Notes: generated by a model not told the origin, from the letters alone. A DNA stretch of 64,000 bases from Dehalococcoidia bacterium (GCA_965215375.1 CBDCDO010000001.1:893567-957566), one strand, 5' to 3'. Shown: positions 4,100 through 39,306, numbered from the stretch's first letter. Made by a program: numbers and translations.

Positions 4100-6115
4100 C
4101 TAGAACAACACGACGGCGATCCAGATGATCATGCCGCCGAGTCCGATTGAAATCGTTCCCGCCTGCACCCAGCCGTTCTGCACGAACCGAGCAGCGTTCG
4201 AGACCGCGAGTCCCTCGCGCCAGGCGTGATTGACAATCCCGTCGACCACGGTCGCGTCGAACCAAGCCGACGAACGCGCGATCCAGCCATAGAAGACACG
4301 TCGCGCGAGAACATTCTCGGCCAGTGCGTCGAGATAGAACAGATTCGTGGCGAAGCCTTGCAGCTCCGGAATCGGCCAAATCTTACCGAATCCGCGCGCC
4401 CGAATCTGCTCGCGATGATGCATGAACACATACGCGGCGAAACCAGCACCAAGCGCGAGCGCTGTCGACCCAAGGAAGACGCCCCAGCTCCAGTGGAACT
4501 TGCCGTCGTGCGGCTCCGGCAGCGCTCCGTAGACCCAGGTCTGGAACTCGCCGCCGAACGTCAGGAATCCAGATACCACCGAAATCACCGCGAGAATCAC
4601 CAGCGGCGTTGTCATGCTGCGCGGAGACTCATGCGGATGCGACGGATCCTCGTTGCCATGCTCGCCCGGTGCGACCTGTTCGCCGCCTCGATACTCGCCG
4701 AAGAATGTCATGTAGACCGCACGCACCATGTACGCCGCGGTCATTCCCGCCGCCAGGAGTCCAAGGACAAACACGCCCTTGTTGTTGTCCCACGCCTCAA
4801 TCAGAATCTCATCCTTCGACCAGAATCCCGAGAGGGGAACGATTCCCGCGAGCGCCAACGTGCCGATCACAAATGTCACGAACGTAATCGGCATCGTGTG
4901 TCGCAGACCGCCCATCTTGCGCATGTCGAACGTGTTGGTCGAGTGATTCACCGACCCAGATCCAAGGAACAGCATCGCCTTGAAGAAGGCGTGCGTCATC
5001 AAATGGAACACGGCCGCTGCATATCCACCGACGCCGATCGCGAACATCATGTACGCCAACTGTGAGATCGTCGAATACGCCAGCACTCGTTTGATGTCGA
5101 CCTGGACCATCGCCAGGACCGCCGCCCCGAGCGCCGTGCCCGCGCCGATCCATGCAATCATGTCGGATGCCGTGGACGACGCATGAATCACCGGGAAGAA
5201 TCGCGCCAACAGGTAAACGCCCGCAGCGACCATCGTGGCCGAGTGCACCAGCGCTGAGACCGGCGTCGGGCCTTCCATCGCGTCGGGCAACCAAATGTGT
5301 AGTGGGAACTGCGCCGACTTGCCGACCGCGCCAGCGATCAGCCCCAGACCGAATAGCGTCAACGCGGTCTGGCTGATCATCAGTCCGTTCAGAGCGAACA
5401 TCCCCGCTTCGGCGCCATGGTCGGCGAGCGCATTGATCTCTGCGATGTCTAGCGTCCCTGTGCGGCTGTAGATCAGAATCATCGCCGCGAGCATGCCGAG
5501 GTCGCCGAGTCTGGTGACCAGGAACGCCTTCTTCGCCGCCGCGGCCGCCGCCGGACGGTGGAACCAGAATCCGATCAACAGATACGAGGTCAGACCGACC
5601 AGCTCCCAGAATGCGAAGAGCATTAGCAAGTTGTCGGCCAGAATCAAGCCGAGCATCGACGTCGTGAACAAGGCCATGAACGCGAAATAGCGCCGATACC
5701 CGTGATCGCCGTCCATGTACCCGGTCGAGTACACCTGTACCAGCAGCGACACCCCAGTGACCACAACCAGCATCACCGACGTGAGGCCGTCGATCCGCAC
5801 GCCGAGATTGACCACCAACTCGCCAGCAGTGAAGAGCTCGTGCGTGCCGATCTCTAGGGGCAGACCGCGTACACCAATGGTGTCGATCAGGTTGATCACG
5901 GCGAGCACAAACGCGACGGCCAGCGCGATGATCAGCGGCGTCGATGCCAATCGCGGGCCGCAGAATTGGTCGGCGATCGGCTTCCACGAGCGCGGGTACT
6001 TGGGGTCCCACTCAGGAATCTGACGCTGCAAATTCTGGTTGAGCGCCGAAATCCCAGCCAGCACGAATGCCGTCAGCGGCAGAAACAGAATCGTCCAGAA
6101 GATGGTCTCGGACAC
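4100..6115 (-). CDS. nuoL: NADH-quinone oxidoreductase subunit L
   Basis: NuoL/ND5 pattern (WLPDAMEGPTPVSALVHSATMVAAGVYL). The track ORF extends to 6220, but the first 35 codons are Arg-rich junk. GTG at 6113-6115 gives the native N-terminus VSETIFWTILFLPL. Confidence 0.9.
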   Translation of the reverse strand: MSETIFWTILFLPLTAFVLAGISALNQNLQRQIPEWDPKYPRSWKPIADQFCGPRLASTPLIIALAVAFVLAVINLIDTIGVRGLPLEIGTHELFTAGELVVNLGVRIDGLTSVMLVVVTGVSLLVQVYSTGYMDGDHGYRRYFAFMALFTTSMLGLILADNLLMLFAFWELVGLTSYLLIGFWFHRPAAAAAAKKAFLVTRLGDLGMLAAMILIYSRTGTLDIAEINALADHGAEAGMFALNGLMISQTALTLFGLGLIAGAVGKSAQFPLHIWLPDAMEGPTPVSALVHSATMVAAGVYLLARFFPVIHASSTASDMIAWIGAGTALGAAVLAMVQVDIKRVLAYSTISQLAYMMFAIGVGGYAAAVFHLMTHAFFKAMLFLGSGSVNHSTNTFDMRKMGGLRHTMPITFVTFVIGTLALAGIVPLSGFWSKDEILIEAWDNNKGVFVLGLLAAGMTAAYMVRAVYMTFFGEYRGGEQVAPGEHGNEDPSHPHESPRSMTTPLVILAVISVVSGFLTFGGEFQTWVYGALPEPHDGKFHWSWGVFLGSTALALGAGFAAYVFMHHREQIRARGFGKIWPIPELQGFATNLFYLDALAENVLARRVFYGWIARSSAWFDATVVDGIVNHAWREGLAVSNAARFVQNGWVQAGTISIGLGGMIIWIAVVLF

Positions 6116-32149: not shown

Positions 32150-32390
32150 AAGCCCCCTCCCTCCTCTGATCCCCACTCCCAGGGAGTAGGCTACCAACTC
32201 CCATTCTGATCCCCTCTCCCTCTGGGAGGGGGTTAGGGTGAGGCTCCCCCTTCCCCAAGGAAGAGCAACACCACCTCCACCCCACTCCCAAAGAGAGGAG
32301 CACCACCAGTGATCCCACTCTCCGAGGAAGGGGAACACCGTTTCCGATCCCCTCTCCCAGAGGGAGAGGGGTAGGCCCCCTACCCAATCA
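32150..32390. repeat. cluster of REP-like palindromic units (CCCCTCTCCC...GGGAGAGGGG family) in a convergent intergenic region
   Basis: Units at ~32196-32245 (CATTCTGATCCCCTCTCCCTCTGGGAGGGGGTTAGGGTGAGG) and ~32340-32385. The first unit is near-identical to 53235-53285. Confidence 0.55.
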
Positions 32391-33216
32391 ACCCAGCCAA
32401 CCGATCCAGCTCCGGAACCACCTCATCCGCCCCAGCATGAGGCAGACGGAAGATGCACCGATCCACACCCATCCGCTCATACTCCGCGATCCCATCCTCG
32501 ACCGCGCCGAACACATTGATCGAGATCTCGTCAAAGTCCCGACCAGCCTCGTGCGCCCGCGACTGGATGTCCTGAATCCCCCGCTCGACGAACCCAGGCG
32601 CCGTGATGTTCGGCAGCCAACCGTCCGCCCAGTCAACCACTCGCTGACGAGCCCACTTGCTACCCGCGCCGATCAACACCGGCGGATGCGGCGTCTGCGT
32701 CGGCTTGGGAATCACCTCGGTCAACGGAATGTCCACGAACTCCGAGTGGAACTCGGACTCCTCCGTTGTCCACATCTCCTTCATCGCCGCAATCCGCTCC
32801 GTCGTGACCTTCCAGCGATCCTGGTAATTCACACCGAGCGGCTCCATCTCTTCGGCCAGCCAGCCCGCACCGATCCCAAAATCGAACCGACCTCCGGAAA
32901 TCATGTCCAGCGACGCAATCTGCTTGGCCAACGCGATCGGCTCATGCTCGGTCACCAGACAAATCCCAGTGCCCAGCCGAATCTCCGAGGTCGCACCCGC
33001 CGCCGCAGCCAGCGCCACAAACGGATCATGAATCCGCCGATACTCAATCGGCAATGAACCGTCCTCGCTGCGCGGGAACCGTGTCTCCCGATTGACCGGC
33101 ATGTGGACATGCTCGGGCACAAAGAGCGACTCGAACCCGCGCTCTTCCGCCGCGACCGCAAGCTCCACAGGGTCCATGGCCATGTCCGTCGCGAAAATAA
33201 ACACACCAAACTTCAT
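32380..33216 (-). CDS. LLM-class (luciferase-like) F420/flavin-dependent oxidoreductase
   Basis: MKFGVFIFATDMAMDPVELAVAAEERGFESLFVPEHVHMP...GIGAGW pattern typical of the TIM-barrel LLM family. Confidence 0.8.
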   Translation of the reverse strand: MKFGVFIFATDMAMDPVELAVAAEERGFESLFVPEHVHMPVNRETRFPRSEDGSLPIEYRRIHDPFVALAAAAGATSEIRLGTGICLVTEHEPIALAKQIASLDMISGGRFDFGIGAGWLAEEMEPLGVNYQDRWKVTTERIAAMKEMWTTEESEFHSEFVDIPLTEVIPKPTQTPHPPVLIGAGSKWARQRVVDWADGWLPNITAPGFVERGIQDIQSRAHEAGRDFDEISINVFGAVEDGIAEYERMGVDRCIFRLPHAGADEVVPELDRLAGLIG

Positions 33217-34236: not shown

Positions 34237-35295
34237 TCAGAGCCCCACCGTCACCGGACGCGTCATCCCGCCGAATGTCGGCATCCAGCACGAATGCTTG
34301 CCCGGCCCTCCAGCGACGATGATGTGAATCTCCTCAGGCCGATCCGAGATCGGCAGCCACTCATCCGAGCTATGCGTCGGCAACACGCCGCCCGCCATAC
34401 GGATGTTCACCGACTCCAGAAATTCCTCGCTCAGCTTGCTCGCCGGATACCGAGCGTTCTCCCACAGATACTCCTGCACCGACTCTCGCGTCCAACCCTC
34501 CGACGCGACCGTCTCTGCGTGTTCTGGACCAAACGCCAGCACAGGTTCGCCCTTGCCCAGAATGTTGTTCGATCCTGCCTGACCCATCGCCCCAGCGACC
34601 GTCTGCAGGATCCCCGCCGCCGTGTTACTGCCGTGATCCTGAATGTTGTGCGGACCCTCGCACGCCCAGGTCGTCACACAGCTGTCCTCTGCATTGAGCC
34701 CGCGCGTCGTCTGGAACGGCGGCCACGGCGACGCATCCTCACGCTCGGTTGCGCAAAATGCGAACTTGGCCGGCGTGCCCTGCGTCGCGCGATCGCCCCG
34801 ACCAGGTGTCGCTCCGGCGACATTCAGTTGCACCAGTCGCACCGCTCGCCCGATCGTCGCGTTGGACGGAAATGTCGGCCCGAAACAGCCCGATCCGCCG
34901 TGAATGCCAGCCGCTCGCGCCGCCGGACCCGACGCCAGGACAAACACCGCGCACGGATGCGTCGTCGCATTGATTCCGTCGAGATTGAACGGCGGCTGCG
35001 CAATCGCTTCGACCGCCGCCAGCACGATCGGGAACTGCTGCGGCCGACAACCCGCCATCACCGCGTTAATCGCGACCGCCTGCACCGTCGCCTCGCCTTG
35101 ACGAGGCGACAACACACCCAACACCTCCATCGGATCGCGACCCGCAGCCTCGACCATCGCCGCAACGCGCTCCGCCGTCGGCGGAATCAGCGGCAGGCCG
35201 TCGGACCACCCACGACGTTGGCACTCCTGCGAGAACTCGAACGCGTCGGCCGGCAGCGAGAATCGCTCGGCCTCTCGACCTCGAGCCGCCGTCAC
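34237..35295 (-). CDS. conserved hypothetical protein (352 aa), translationally coupled to the upstream selenoprotein gene
   Basis: GTG start overlaps the TGA stop of the upstream gene (GTGA at 35292-35295). Balanced composition; contains GWSDGLPLIPPT...AINAVMAGCRPQQFPIVLAAVEAIA. No family recognised. Confidence 0.55.
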   Translation of the reverse strand: MTAARGREAERFSLPADAFEFSQECQRRGWSDGLPLIPPTAERVAAMVEAAGRDPMEVLGVLSPRQGEATVQAVAINAVMAGCRPQQFPIVLAAVEAIAQPPFNLDGINATTHPCAVFVLASGPAARAAGIHGGSGCFGPTFPSNATIGRAVRLVQLNVAGATPGRGDRATQGTPAKFAFCATEREDASPWPPFQTTRGLNAEDSCVTTWACEGPHNIQDHGSNTAAGILQTVAGAMGQAGSNNILGKGEPVLAFGPEHAETVASEGWTRESVQEYLWENARYPASKLSEEFLESVNIRMAGGVLPTHSSDEWLPISDRPEEIHIIVAGGPGKHSCWMPTFGGMTRPVTVGL

Positions 35296-35837
35296 GATGT
35301 CCCCGCCTCACCAAGCAGCGCCGCCTCAAGACGATCAACTACACCATCATCGACCCGTCCGCGCACGCGCTCAGGTCGCAGCCCACCAAGCGGATGCGGC
35401 ACAATCAAGCGGTCCAACTCGGGCAACCCGCGCTGCTCCGCTTCGAGTTGCAGCAAATCCGTAAACGCCGACGTCCCAACCGTCACCGTCGGAATTCCCA
35501 TCTCTTCAAACAGCACTGAGGCGTGGACACTCCACGTCGTGCAGCTTCCTCAATCGCAGCTCCCAATGAGCAGGAAATCGGCCCCGTTCCGCAGCGCGTC
35601 AATCGTCGAGTCTGACGGCGGCCCACCAACCGGCTTGCTGCCAACGACCACGTCGCCCAACCGATGCCGTTCGCCCAACCGCTCGACCATCGTTTCCATC
35701 AGCAAACGGGCATTCGCCTTCCGATTCTCCAGAATCCCAGGTCGAAGCCCGTCCAACGACGTCGGTCGAGGCGCCGCCGTCGCCTCATGAATCGCCACAT
35801 GAGCCAACGGACTCAAAATCTCAATCGTCTCCGGCAT
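35292..35837 (-). CDS. UGSC-type selenoprotein with in-frame TGA (Sec) at 35550-35552
   Basis: Track ORFs 35550..35885 and 35292..35516 are in the same frame (offset 258 nt) and separated only by TGA. Read-through gives ...ADFLLIGSCD-U-GSCTTWSVHASVLFEEMGIPTV... A GC-rich hairpin sits 11 nt after the UGA. Best RBS is GGAGG-6 nt-ATG at 35837. Confidence 0.6.
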
Positions 35838-35872: not shown

Positions 35873-37537
35873 CTAAGGCTTCCAATCCTCCGGCTCGACG
35901 ACGATGATCTCGATGTACCCCAACACACGACGTTCCTCCAGGGTGGCGCCCGGGTCACCTTGGGTACCGGCTGGGCATCGTGTCGTCACCTCAACTAGCA
36001 CCCGTCCAAGCTGGGTAGGAGTGCCCCGCAACAGCATCTCGGCTCCGATGATGCCGCCATCATCGTCGTATGTCGTGATACTCGTAGGCGCAATCAACCC
36101 ATTCCAAGCTTCAACGAGTTGATCTTCATTCGACAGATTACCACTGAAGTAGTGACCCTGTTGCTGGTAAGATTCGTCCGGGCTCGGCCGCCCTTGGATC
36201 CAACAAAAGGCATCCGAAAACTCTTGTGTTGATGTCAACACTACCCGATCGTACCAGTGGTACGGACGACCAAGTTCCACGAACACCGTACGGATCAGGT
36301 CATCCGGCCCCACAGTTGTCCTGTCTGACGGATCCGACGGTAAATTGGCAAACAGTTGCTTTTGTATCTGGACTGTGCGCTCCGAAGGTGGTTCGAACGA
36401 TATTGGATTCCCGGCATAGACGAAGCGAAAGTTGGCATTCCGACGCGCTTCAGCGGACCGAAAGTGAGGAATGTAGCGTTCCCAAACCGCCAACATCGTC
36501 GCGACAAACTCCGGACCGAAAAACTCATCAGGATCGGTGATAGCCCGTACGTAGTCTACCAGTAAATCAGCAAATGTGTCTGATTGATCAGCTTCGATAA
36601 CTCGACCCTCTACCGGAATCATCGCTCGCGACTCAACGCCATTGATGAACACTGGAACGTCCGATGCTCGATCTCCAAACAGGTCAACGTTGATCAAGTC
36701 GAACAACCGATTGATCTGATACCAATACGTCCCCCAATCAGGGCGCCAAGTCGATTCCACATCGACGACGTAGTCGGGCAGGAAGTAGTCATTGACATGC
36801 CTGGCCCAGTCCACAGCGTCGCCAAAGTGGTGACCATCAACGCCAGTTAGAGGCCCTGAAGTAATGGACAGCCCCAGCCGAGGTTTGTAGTATATTACCG
36901 ACGAGTTCCAAATGCCGTGTCCTGTGGTTTCTAGGAATAGCACGGTACGAGGTGTATCATCACCTCTATTTCCCGTGCCGTCGTAGCCAGTGTGATACCA
37001 GCCTTGTTCACCATGGATGATCACTTTTCGGTCAAGAGCGTAGATGATAAAATCAGGATCAGTGACCCGCAGGTCTGTTGCGAAAAGCTCTGCTCTTGAT
37101 AGGCACCCTGGTGTTCCAGATGAAATACCAAGCGCATCGAGCTCAATCTGAAACTCCGCAGAGCAGTCGGCGAGGAAGCTCATGCGATCTTGATACACGT
37201 CGATGGTGAGGAATGACCACTGATTTGGTCGACCTTGCCAGAGCAGTGTCACCTCTCCAAGATCGAGCAATGCACCATGCTCGAAACGTTGACCTGGGAT
37301 GGCGAAGCCTTCACCGCGCTCCGCGGCGTCGGCGAAACAGTCCGTAATCGCATCTCGTGATGCGCTGCCAGGGATTTCTTCGGCATACTTCAGCCATTGT
37401 GTTCCGTTATAGCACCATGCTGGGAGGTCGGCGCGATTTGCCTCAACTGTGGCGTTCCAAGCGAAGAGGCTTGCGCTGATCGCGAACGCGAGGATGGCGA
37501 ATCCAACCCAAGGTCGATGTGCGCGCCTACGTCTCAT
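35873..37537 (-). CDS. secreted / membrane-anchored hypothetical protein (~555 aa), lower GC than its neighbours
   Basis: N-terminal MRRRRAHRPWVGFAILAFAISASLFAWNA signal/anchor, many Trp/Tyr, no recognised catalytic motif. Local GC is ~52% versus ~65% in the flanks. The track ORF extends to 37579. Confidence 0.55.
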   Translation of the reverse strand: MRRRRAHRPWVGFAILAFAISASLFAWNATVEANRADLPAWCYNGTQWLKYAEEIPGSASRDAITDCFADAAERGEGFAIPGQRFEHGALLDLGEVTLLWQGRPNQWSFLTIDVYQDRMSFLADCSAEFQIELDALGISSGTPGCLSRAELFATDLRVTDPDFIIYALDRKVIIHGEQGWYHTGYDGTGNRGDDTPRTVLFLETTGHGIWNSSVIYYKPRLGLSITSGPLTGVDGHHFGDAVDWARHVNDYFLPDYVVDVESTWRPDWGTYWYQINRLFDLINVDLFGDRASDVPVFINGVESRAMIPVEGRVIEADQSDTFADLLVDYVRAITDPDEFFGPEFVATMLAVWERYIPHFRSAEARRNANFRFVYAGNPISFEPPSERTVQIQKQLFANLPSDPSDRTTVGPDDLIRTVFVELGRPYHWYDRVVLTSTQEFSDAFCWIQGRPSPDESYQQQGHYFSGNLSNEDQLVEAWNGLIAPTSITTYDDDGGIIGAEMLLRGTPTQLGRVLVEVTTRCPAGTQGDPGATLEERRVLGYIEIIVVEPEDWKP

Positions 37538-37562
37538 ATAGTGCACAAGTGGACAAGCATCC

Positions 37563-37814
37563 TTACTCCAGATACCCATAGACGAGCTCCCGTAACTCGT
37601 CCATGTCCGGGAACCGACCCATCGCCGCCTTGCTAAACACGAGTTCGCCGTTCACCGACCACTCGAACAGGCCCTTCGTGTCCGGCACCAACCGCACGTC
37701 GCTGACGAGATGCTGGATGTCCGCCATCAGCTCGCCAAGCATCCACGACGTGCGCGGCCAGTACCCACAGTCGGCGCAGTAGACCACCTCTATCGCGATT
37801 TGCGCTTCTGACAT
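37563..37814 (-). CDS. Rdx-family (SelW/SelT/SelH-like) thioredoxin-fold protein, Cys form (CxxC)
   Basis: IAIEVVYCADCGYWPRTSWMLGELM matches the I-x-YC-x-x-C-x-W-x-R-x-x-W pattern of the Rdx family, where selenoprotein homologues carry CxxU. 83 aa. Confidence 0.65.
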   Translation of the reverse strand: MSEAQIAIEVVYCADCGYWPRTSWMLGELMADIQHLVSDVRLVPDTKGLFEWSVNGELVFSKAAMGRFPDMDELRELVYGYLE

Positions 37815-37823
37815 CGTGCGCCC

Positions 37824-38834
37824 CTATCCCCCCAGATACTGTTCCAGCCGCCTGCCGACCTCCGACGGCGTGCCCGACGGTAGTGGAATCATCTGCAAGT
37901 CAGCACCAGCGTCCGACCGAGACTGCAACTGCTCCGAGACCGTTTCAATCGGCCCGATCACCTGAATCTCCCGAACCATGTGCTCCGAGAACGCCATTAG
38001 CGCGGCCTCAGAGTCTCGGTCGGCCCAGGCTGTGCGCGATTCCTTGATCTCAGACTCAAAGCCCGACCGCGAAAGCATCTGCCAGTAGAACGAACCCATC
38101 CGGTTCGTGTAATGAAACAGTGGCTGTCGAGCATTGCGCCACGTCTGCTCGTCATCTCCTTCGCCGGTCACGTACACATTCGTGAACGGCGCCACCGTGA
38201 CTGAGTCCTCGGGCCGACCAGCATCGCGCGACGCCCCCGCAAGCTGTCGCTTCAGCGACTCAAACGACCGCTTCGGCCAGTGAATCGGATAGATCCCGTC
38301 CGCGATCTCACCAGTCTGCTGAATTGACCGAGGCGTAATCGCCGCAATCCAGACCGGAATGTCTTCCCGCACCGGCTCATATCCAAGCAGACGGAAACCC
38401 CGCTGGAGCGTGTAAATCTCGCCCTCATACATCAGCCGTTGTCCACTGAGGAGCATCTTGATGATCTCCGTGTACTCACGGATGCGTCGCAGCGGTCGAT
38501 CGAAACCGACCCCGTGGAATCCCTCAATTACCAAGTTCCCCGATGATCCCAGCCCGCAGACCATGCGCCCGCCCGAGATCGTCTCGAGCGTTGCAAACTC
38601 CTGCGCGATCACCGCCGGTGTCCGCGAGAACGTGTTGAGAATCCCTGTCCCAATCTGGATCTTCTCCGTGTTCGCAGCAATCACCGTCAGCCACGGCAAC
38701 ACCGAGTGCCCCCAGGCCTCGCCCGTCGACACCATCTCGTAACCGAGGTCCTCAGCGATTTTCACCTTCTCCAAGGTGTCTCGCCAGTTCGTGTCGAATC
38801 CTGCCAAAATGCCCAGTCGCATTGTCGTGCTCAT
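37824..38834 (-). CDS. LLM-class F420/flavin-dependent oxidoreductase
   Basis: RLGILAGFDTNWRDTLEKVKIAEDLGYEMVSTGEAWGHSVLPWLTV...GLGSSG TIM-barrel LLM pattern. Confidence 0.8.
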   Translation of the reverse strand: MSTTMRLGILAGFDTNWRDTLEKVKIAEDLGYEMVSTGEAWGHSVLPWLTVIAANTEKIQIGTGILNTFSRTPAVIAQEFATLETISGGRMVCGLGSSGNLVIEGFHGVGFDRPLRRIREYTEIIKMLLSGQRLMYEGEIYTLQRGFRLLGYEPVREDIPVWIAAITPRSIQQTGEIADGIYPIHWPKRSFESLKRQLAGASRDAGRPEDSVTVAPFTNVYVTGEGDDEQTWRNARQPLFHYTNRMGSFYWQMLSRSGFESEIKESRTAWADRDSEAALMAFSEHMVREIQVIGPIETVSEQLQSRSDAGADLQMIPLPSGTPSEVGRRLEQYLGG

Positions 38835-38844
38835 CGGTTCGCTC

Positions 38845-39306
38845 CTATTCGATTTCGACGATCATTTCGATTTCCACAGCCATGCCCACCGGCAACGACT
38901 GCATGCCGACCGCGGAACGCGCGTGACGGCCACTCTCGCCAAACAGCTCGACCAACAAGTCGGACGCGCCATTGGCGACGCCAGGGTGGTTACCAAACTC
39001 CGGCGTGCAGTTGACCATGCAGAGCAACTTCACAATCCGCGAGACGCGGTCCAGCGAGCCGATCTCGGCCCGCAGCGAGCCCAGCAATTGCACCATCACC
39101 GCCCGAGCAGCATCGTAGCCCGCGTCGACATCCATGTCGGCGCCCAGCTTGCCTCGAATCAACTCGCCGTCCTTGAACGGACCGTGTCCCGAGAGAAACA
39201 CGAGATTACCCGTCCGCACCGCAGGCACATAGTTGGCCAGCGGCGGATTCGTCGAAAGATCGAGCCCCATCTCCAACGCCTTCGCGTCGGCGTTATGTGC
39301 AGACAT
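38845..39306 (-). CDS. RidA/YjgF/RutC family protein
   Basis: VRTGNLVFLSGHGP...NCTPEFGNHPGVANGASDLLVELFGESGRHARSAVGMQSLPVGMAVEIEMIVE. Confidence 0.8.
   Translation of the reverse strand: MSAHNADAKALEMGLDLSTNPPLANYVPAVRTGNLVFLSGHGPFKDGELIRGKLGADMDVDAGYDAARAVMVQLLGSLRAEIGSLDRVSRIVKLLCMVNCTPEFGNHPGVANGASDLLVELFGESGRHARSAVGMQSLPVGMAVEIEMIVEIE

Follow-up and report, generated by a model that had tools for sequence, protein, structure and literature searches.

What does a 352-residue protein that belongs to no known family contribute to a neighbouring selenoprotein whose role has itself resisted explanation? This question is raised by a locus in a 64,000-nucleotide stretch of DNA from a Dehalococcoidia bacterium (GCA_965215375.1, CBDCDO010000001.1:893567-957566), hereafter the window, in which the gene for such a protein, here called the partner, overlaps the end of a gene encoding a selenoprotein of the UGSC family. 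In environmental metagenomes UGSC has ranked since 2007-2008 with the most abundant selenoprotein families of prokaryotes, and a 2026 review continues to count it among the selenoproteins with largely uncharacterized biological functions. The reading favoured here, to which a probability of roughly 0.55 is assigned, is that the partner is an obligate UGSC subunit and that the two together form a two-domain thiol/selenol-dependent reductase recharged by thioredoxin reductase (TrxR). The elements of the locus that matter most to this reading are listed below, with positions counted from the first letter of the window.

34237..35295, minus strand: partner gene, an open reading frame (ORF) of 352 amino acids with a GTG start; unannotated family member, proposed substrate-binding/catalytic subunit
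35292..35295, minus strand: GTGA stop/start overlap of 4 nucleotides (UGSC TGA and partner GTG), translational-coupling junction
35292..35837, minus strand: UGSC selenoprotein gene, 181 amino acids including selenocysteine (Sec), ATG at 35835-35837 (MPETIEIL...), recognized by its translation and by PF24696
35550..35552, minus strand: in-frame TGA, the Sec codon of the D-U-G-S-C motif, in the context LIGSCD-U-GSC-TTW
35508..35547, minus strand: hairpin, candidate selenocysteine insertion sequence (SECIS) element, starting 9 nucleotides after the UGA, minimum free energy -17 kcal/mol

A selenoprotein gene and the gene coupled to it

The assignment of the upstream gene to UGSC is based on two profile libraries. 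With U replaced by C, its product matches Pfam PF24696 with an E value of 1e-40 (140.1 bits against a cut-off of 25) over profile positions 1-162 of 172, while NCBIfam NF041046 is matched with 106.3 bits (E 1.4e-30), below the equivalog cut-off of 125; the protein is a clear relative that stays under the NCBI naming threshold. The feature that defines the family, U-G-S-C with an in-frame UGA and a Cys three residues on, is present, and it occurs in the same register in 74 related genome loci, where the Sec position is occupied by TGA in about 66, by Cys in six (e.g. Natrialba) and by TAG in one Blastococcus. The last of these, Blastococcus sp. CT_GayMR19 (locus L027, NZ_SPQL01000008.1), carries its TAG at 5741-5743 in the context VGD-TAG-GSC, which is consistent with the UAG-decoding tRNA-Sec(CUA) of the Geodermatophilaceae, a family from which UAG-containing UGSC genes have already been reported (PMC5330540). 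On the 3.3-Mb metagenome contig that contains the window, the UGSC gene was cut by the gene caller into pieces of 95 and 69 amino acids, both of which match PF24696. The hairpin downstream of the UGA remains a candidate SECIS element without statistical support, as it shows no excess stability over shuffled sequence (z = -0.33).

At the minus-strand junction the upstream frame ends in GGG ACA TCG TGA and the partner frame begins with GTG ACG GCG GCT. No alternative ATG, GTG or TTG is found between this GTG and the conserved DGLPxxPPT core (residues 32-40), and the N-terminus is common to the homologues; the GTG start is therefore considered sound. A sequence-only reading of the locus had already described a 352-amino-acid ORF whose GTG overlaps the UGSC stop codon, and both the ORF and the GTGA were recovered exactly, as were the sequence motifs that it had quoted; the 'several Cys' that it mentioned amount to eight, with only C83 and C181 conserved across the family. 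UGSC is followed by the partner at 133 junctions in DNA, of which 43 fuse the two in frame and at least 37 show an ATGA or GTGA overlap of 4 nucleotides, so that one or other arrangement accounts for at least 80 of them. These counts indicate that the 4-nucleotide overlap is the norm of the family rather than a local accident, and stoichiometric co-expression of UGSC and its partner is a reasonable inference from the overlaps and fusions. Since ribosomes must cross the UGA before they reach the GTGA, such coupling, like fusion, would also make synthesis of the partner dependent on successful Sec insertion upstream.

Partner and UGSC accompany each other across bacteria and archaea

The 80 best genome loci of the partner, drawn from more than ten phyla including archaea, were used to follow the linkage in the forward direction. 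A same-strand UGSC domain stands in 74 of them (74 of the 77 with usable flanks), within 600 nucleotides of the partner in 73; at the 74th locus, L036, the two genes are separated by an ORF of the DUF6282 cluster. The six misses comprise three loci that lack an upstream flank and three real absences (L057, L073 and L078), which were not rescued by a hidden Markov model built from the matches. UGSC is found upstream of the partner in about 61 loci and only downstream of it in 13, and 78 of the 82 UGSC genes in the genome loci touch a partner gene. The more distant paralogues of the partner adjoin a different UGSC subtype (GuGSCTPA), so that the pairing is older than the split between subfamilies.

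The reverse direction was followed by a partner-independent scan of metagenome contigs with a DNA pattern for D-U-G-S-C-T-x-W, a pattern that selects one UGSC subtype. Real UGSC genes were recognized in 113 of the 120 metagenome loci, and 84 of these (84 of 86 informative loci) have an adjacent partner on the same strand, located downstream in 79 and upstream in five; in two loci the partner is adjacent on the opposite strand. A flank shorter than 500 nucleotides on at least one side affects 27 UGSC loci, and L111 is the only adequately flanked locus in which no partner was found.

Fusion of the two domains provides a third line of evidence. In a census of the 148 best cluster representatives of the partner family, UGSC is fused in 57 (39 %). 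The order UGSC-partner is found in 53 and partner-UGSC in four, whereas 84 representatives consist of the partner alone; the others are tandem partner-partner(-partner) proteins (four, e.g. P0141, P0209 and P0214) and proteins that combine the partner with another domain (three, including the TrxR fusion P0126). Only 18 of the 53 UGSC-partner entries contain the whole UGSC domain, and the other 35 begin after the Sec position, as would be expected if gene callers restart after the TGA; the four partner-UGSC entries all stop exactly at profile position 96 of UGSC, immediately before Sec. Entries P0122-P0125, P0127, P0128, P0193 and P0238, together with about 30 other representatives, either begin just after the Sec codon or end at the residue that precedes it. 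Many 'partner' entries of 400-460 amino acids are in fact Sec-truncated selenoprotein fusions, a systematic artefact of gene calling that conceals the fused selenoproteins.

A second, divergent paralogue of the partner lies directly downstream of the first in about ten loci (U-P-P', as in L011, L023, L025, L030, L034, L047, L050, L061 and L063), and in Halalkalicoccus the order is P-U-P, with the paralogue at 5279-6304 of L203. The adjacent paralogues and the tandem fusions suggest that hetero-oligomers are formed in some lineages.

The refuting observation named by the sequence-only reading, a family that is widespread without UGSC neighbours, was looked for, and the opposite was found (74 of 80 loci forward, 84 of 86 in reverse, 39 % fused). 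Its proposal that the 352-residue protein is a partner of the UGSC protein is borne out by the two-way adjacency, the fusions and the conserved overlap. With adjacency in both search directions in bacteria and archaea, a conserved stop/start overlap, and fusions of either order, the partnership is as well supported as comparative genomics permits.

An unannotated family with an enzyme-like conserved core

The partner family is large. A word-indexed search returned at least 7,585 homologues (best E 1e-221), and in an exhaustive search the matches formed 7,079 clusters at 50 % identity, of which 1,993 have E values below 1e-30. The named close homologues come from Dehalococcoidia, and genome matches extend to other Chloroflexota, Methylomirabilota/Rokubacteria, Alpha-, Beta- and Gammaproteobacteria, Actinomycetota, Acidobacteriota, Binatia, haloarchaea and Nitrosocosmicus. 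All family members on the RefSeq plasmids of cultured hosts carry the label 'hypothetical protein'. The partner and three diverse homologues matched no Pfam-A or NCBIfam family at E<=0.01 or at E<=10, the precomputed Pfam assignment is empty for all partner-only matches, and neither phmmer nor a profile hmmsearch found a match among all PDB sequences; the earlier statement that the protein could be placed in no known family holds against all three collections. Remote sequence homology yielded only noise (timeless, isovaleryl-CoA dehydrogenase and thioredoxin reductase, E 0.2-1), and these candidates were rejected.

Conservation over 231 diverse family members is concentrated in a limited set of residues. 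R150, E184, G82, G123, G149 and G329 are conserved in 100 %, and D32, G33, P35 and P39 of the DGLPxxPPT motif in at least 97 %, followed by C83 and D168 (94 %), K177 (92 %), H259 (88 %), C181 (87 %), H334 (78 %) and C137 (37 %). C83 and C181 occur together in 192 of the 231 members (83 %). The conserved polar set of D32, R150, D168, K177, E184 and H259 looks like an enzyme active site. Loss of C83 or C181 was also sought in the UGSC-less partner copies of L057, L073 and L078; neither residue was lost in any of them, and the test is non-discriminating.

An AlphaFold (AF2) model of the partner, obtained from a 42-sequence alignment, is of high predicted quality, with a predicted local distance difference test score (pLDDT) of 90.0 and a predicted template modelling score (pTM) of 0.90. 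The Foldseek comparison that the sequence-only reading had proposed as a check returned weak matches, with no fold relative among solved structures: the best match, the alpha subunit of class I fumarate hydratase, has an E value of 3e-4 but a template modelling (TM) score of 0.22, and the next ones are Toblerone-fold cyclic amide hydrolases. Such matches may be taken as hints on local alpha+beta architecture only. An assignment of the partner to the Fe-S hydro-lyases was considered because three Cys are conserved between the window protein and its close relatives and because fumarate hydratase is the top match; it was rejected in view of the weak fold scores and of the Cys themselves, since such enzymes have three conserved Cys ligands of a [4Fe-4S] cluster, whereas across the 231 members only C83 and C181 are conserved and C137 is kept in 37 %.

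Thioredoxin reductase and the wider neighbourhood

ORFs resembling low-molecular-weight TrxR were found in 10 of the 80 genome loci and at a single metagenome locus; with few exceptions they directly adjoin the pair and share its strand. Among seven annotated plasmid loci, trxB or a TrxR-like gene is adjacent in four: the order is trxB-trxA-partner-UGSC in Arthrobacter sp. ERGS1:01, partner-UGSC-trxB in Roseovarius sp. THAF8, trxB-TctC-SDR-partner-UGSC in Variovorax sp. SRS16, where SDR denotes a short-chain dehydrogenase/reductase, and TrxR-like oxidoreductase-TctC-fusion protein in V. boronicumulans. All of the neighbouring TrxR-like ORFs carry CAxC and an N-terminal GxGxxG/A motif of the flavin adenine dinucleotide type, and most of them also carry a GGGxxA/G motif of the NADPH type; the partner-TrxR fusion P0126 contains GSGPAG...CAVC...GGGDSA. 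The redox link that had been suspected from the window alone gains support from these adjacent and fused reductases.

There is no universal third gene among the 80 loci. The most frequent neighbours are TctC/Bug binding proteins (18 loci), SDR proteins (15), acyl-CoA dehydrogenases (13) and enoyl-CoA hydratases (12), followed by family III CoA-transferases (9), DUF6282 proteins (6) and AMP-binding ligases (6). DUF6282 stands beside the pair in L003, L004, L011, L026, L036 and L048, and in Natrinema caseinilyticum (L211, 5349-8760) its gene overlaps the partner stop and precedes genes for an NAD(P)-binding protein and a major facilitator superfamily transporter; DUF6282 may act as an accessory enzyme in one subfamily. 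A distant UGSC-partner fusion of about 570 amino acids adjoins aconitase X and its DUF126 subunit in Sporomusa termitida (L201, 2869-4574) and Vibrio europaeus (L202, 4001-5710), and the recurrence of this neighbourhood in two unrelated hosts may hint at what the fused subfamily acts on.

The window itself contributes the following neighbours.

37563..37814, minus strand: Rdx/SelW-like CxxC gene, 83 amino acids, motif CADC (Cys form), Pfam PF10262, E 1.4e-17
35873-37579, minus strand: ORF of 568 amino acids with an N-terminal hydrophobic segment and no Pfam or NCBIfam match
32380-33216, 37824-38834 and 38845-39306, minus strand: two F420-type luciferase-like oxidoreductases and a YjgF/RidA-family protein

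In the closest relatives of the window locus, L001-L004, an Rdx/SelW-like gene directly precedes UGSC (L001, 5181-5441; L003, 5024-5401; L004, up to 5379), and its CxxC product may serve as a local thioredoxin-like electron donor in the clade of the window. Only the window and L002 have the 568-amino-acid ORF between the Rdx and UGSC genes, where it has the appearance of a lineage-specific insertion. The luciferase-like and RidA genes are probably outside the module, because they are kept only in L001 and L002.

A proposed reductase and its alternatives

The favoured reading, a two-domain reductase recharged by TrxR, can be formulated as follows. The enzyme would be encoded either as two translationally coupled genes, as in the window, or as one fused chain. 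Electrons would pass from NAD(P)H to low-molecular-weight TrxR and on to the U-x-x-C of UGSC, in some lineages by way of thioredoxin or of a CxxC protein of the Rdx/SelW-like type. The substrate would bind in a pocket of the partner that contains the invariant R150 and E184, the near-invariant D32, D168, K177 and H259 and, in most members, C83 and C181. Two electrons would come from the Sec/Cys pair of UGSC, which would end as a selenenylsulfide and be recycled by TrxR. A small organic acid or an acyl-CoA derivative is the probable substrate, which may differ between subfamilies; the neighbouring genes point loosely to the metabolism of small carboxylates and acyl-CoA. Adjacency in both directions, frequent fusion and the recurrent adjacency or fusion of TrxR are observed; a physical complex between the two proteins, the direction of electron flow, the choice of the partner as the substrate-binding subunit and the class of substrate are the points that we infer.

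Several observations weigh against this reading. Either C83 or C181 is absent in about 17 % of the family members, including UGSC-fused ones such as P0129. The window contains no TrxR gene across its 64 kb, and most loci have none adjacent to the pair, so that where TrxR does occur the link could reflect the general upkeep of reduced thiol and selenol groups instead of turnover. The structure model of the fusion P0098, computed from a block alignment, reaches a pTM of only 0.60 and contains a disordered linker, so that docking of the Sec on the partner pocket can only be presumed. Neither the partner nor UGSC shows a sequence or fold relationship to the subunits GrdA, GrdB and GrdE of glycine reductase or PrdA and PrdB of D-proline reductase, the enzymes to which the pair is compared below. 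Finally, the genomic contexts are heterogeneous, and the substrate class is therefore a guess.

P0098 deserves separate comment as a sequence. Around residue 101 it has Leu where 85 %-identical relatives have a Sec codon (TAN-L-GSC), which points to an inactive variant unless it is an error of sequencing or assembly, and a search with this fusion protein returned no further full-length fusions. Within its model the UGSC domain is well predicted and resembles a flavodoxin/Rossmann fold, not a thioredoxin fold.

The domain model bears on the alternative that survives best, although it is an unlikely one: UGSC would be a specialized thioredoxin-like carrier reduced by TrxR, and the chemistry would be performed entirely by the partner, with C83 and C181 as a catalytic and resolving Cys pair whose disulfide UGSC would reduce, in the manner of Msr, ArsC or the peroxiredoxins. 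A thioredoxin gene accompanies TrxR only in Arthrobacter, and in the other 14 of 15 TrxR-containing loci UGSC could take the vacant slot; moreover, U-x-x-C mimics the CxxC of redox carriers, and the joint presence of C83 and C181 in 83 % of the members agrees with such a role. On the other hand, the loss of one Cys in the remaining 17 %, among them P0129 with its fused UGSC, the strict invariance of R150 and E184 instead of the Cys, and the flavodoxin/Rossmann-like model all argue against a carrier, as does the fact that Sec usually sits at the residue that attacks the substrate.

Somewhat less probable again is a non-redox enzyme acting on an organic acid, i.e. an isomerase, racemase, hydratase or lyase, in which the Sec/Cys pair and the partner residues would provide acid-base or nucleophilic catalysis, and TrxR would merely keep selenol and thiol reduced in aerobes. 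The invariant residues of the partner are of acid-base types (D, E, H, K and R), and the weak fold matches to class I fumarate hydratase and to the Toblerone-fold cyclic amide hydrolases point the same way. Hydratases, CoA-transferases and aconitase X are frequent neighbours, with enolase and RidA by some members.

By far the least likely explanation is that the partner serves UGSC in maturation, insertion or as a chaperone, the sequence-only reading having allowed for a maturation factor, or that the pair is a sulfur/selenium trafficking module of persulfide/selenide carrier and transferase: tight genetic coupling would fit, and DsrE/TusD carriers also have Rossmann-like domains with a Cys at a helix N-terminus, but the pair is equally conserved with Cys-type UGSC (e.g. 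in haloarchaea), which needs no selenium-specific maturation, the two proteins are often one polypeptide, and the conserved polar residues of the partner are enzyme-like.

Comparison with characterized reductases

The closest functional parallel to the proposed reductase is found in glycine reductase (GrdA/GrdB/GrdE, encoded with trxB-trxA) and D-proline reductase (PrdA/PrdB/PrdC) of Stickland-fermenting clostridia. There the substrate is attacked by Sec, and the selenoether is resolved by a neighbouring Cys into a selenenylsulfide, which a thioredoxin-type system or PrdC of the same operon recycles (PMC3091704). The UGSC-partner pair likewise consists of a small Sec/Cys selenoprotein and a separate, here proposed, substrate-binding subunit, and the trxB-trxA-partner-UGSC order of Arthrobacter mirrors the layout of the glycine reductase operon. 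An operon link to thioredoxin-system genes of this type is nevertheless confined to a subset (four of seven plasmid loci, 10 of 80 genome loci and one fusion) that does not include the window. In contrast to the clostridial reductases, the hosts of UGSC and its partner are mostly aerobes (Dehalococcoidia, Proteobacteria, Actinomycetota and haloarchaea), fusion of the subunits is common, and there is no sign of a pyruvoyl-forming proprotein. Membership of the GrdE/PrdA (PF09338) and GrdB/PrdB (PF07355) families was examined, and no Pfam match at E<=10 was found beyond PF24696 of UGSC; for this reason the pair may be said, by analogy, to work like glycine or D-proline reductase, not to be one.

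A second parallel is provided by the thioredoxin-dependent two-Cys reductases MsrA/B, ArsC, peroxiredoxins and PAPS reductase, which resemble the proposed chain of NADPH, TrxR, a CxxC or UxxC carrier and a conserved-Cys reductase, and Sec forms of which are common in the same environments according to a 2008 survey (PMC2398784). The partner differs from them in its unrelated fold with no PDB match and in a Cys pair that is present in only 83 % of members, and UGSC differs in being flavodoxin-like.

The same survey, by Zhang & Gladyshev, describes a 'UGSC/Unknown_1' fusion in ocean metagenome reads, with an Unknown_1 domain of unknown function that has conserved Cys and also occurs alone in a few aquatic organisms. 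This fusion fits the UGSC-partner fusions seen among the cluster representatives, and Unknown_1 is probably the partner domain. The pairing was in this respect partly anticipated. The survey makes no mention of the near-universal adjacency of unfused genes, the size and breadth of the family, the TrxR link or the missing fold match, and no report of the unfused pairing, the TrxR link, the family size or the absence of a fold relative was found.

Implications

UGSC is practically never alone: it is accompanied by a partner of about 350 residues from an unannotated family of about 7,000 clusters and, recurrently, by a TrxR of its own. The open question of what UGSC does thereby becomes a testable three-component model, and compact operons are available in the cultured organisms Arthrobacter sp. 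ERGS1:01, Roseovarius sp. THAF8, Variovorax sp. SRS16 and Halalkalicoccus jeotgali. The partner family merits a Pfam or NCBIfam model, and the truncation of its fusions constitutes a systematic annotation error.

A bolder version of the reductase proposal, put forward tentatively and with less confidence than the pairing or the reductase itself, is that UGSC, partner and TrxR constitute a hitherto unrecognized three-component selenoenzyme with a catalytic subunit of new fold that reduces small organic acids or acyl-CoA derivatives in aerobes. If this were true, such an enzyme would be distributed across thousands of bacterial and archaeal lineages from oceans, freshwater, groundwater and soil. 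It would be to aerobes what the glycine and proline reductases are to Stickland fermenters, and it would explain the environmental abundance of UGSC.
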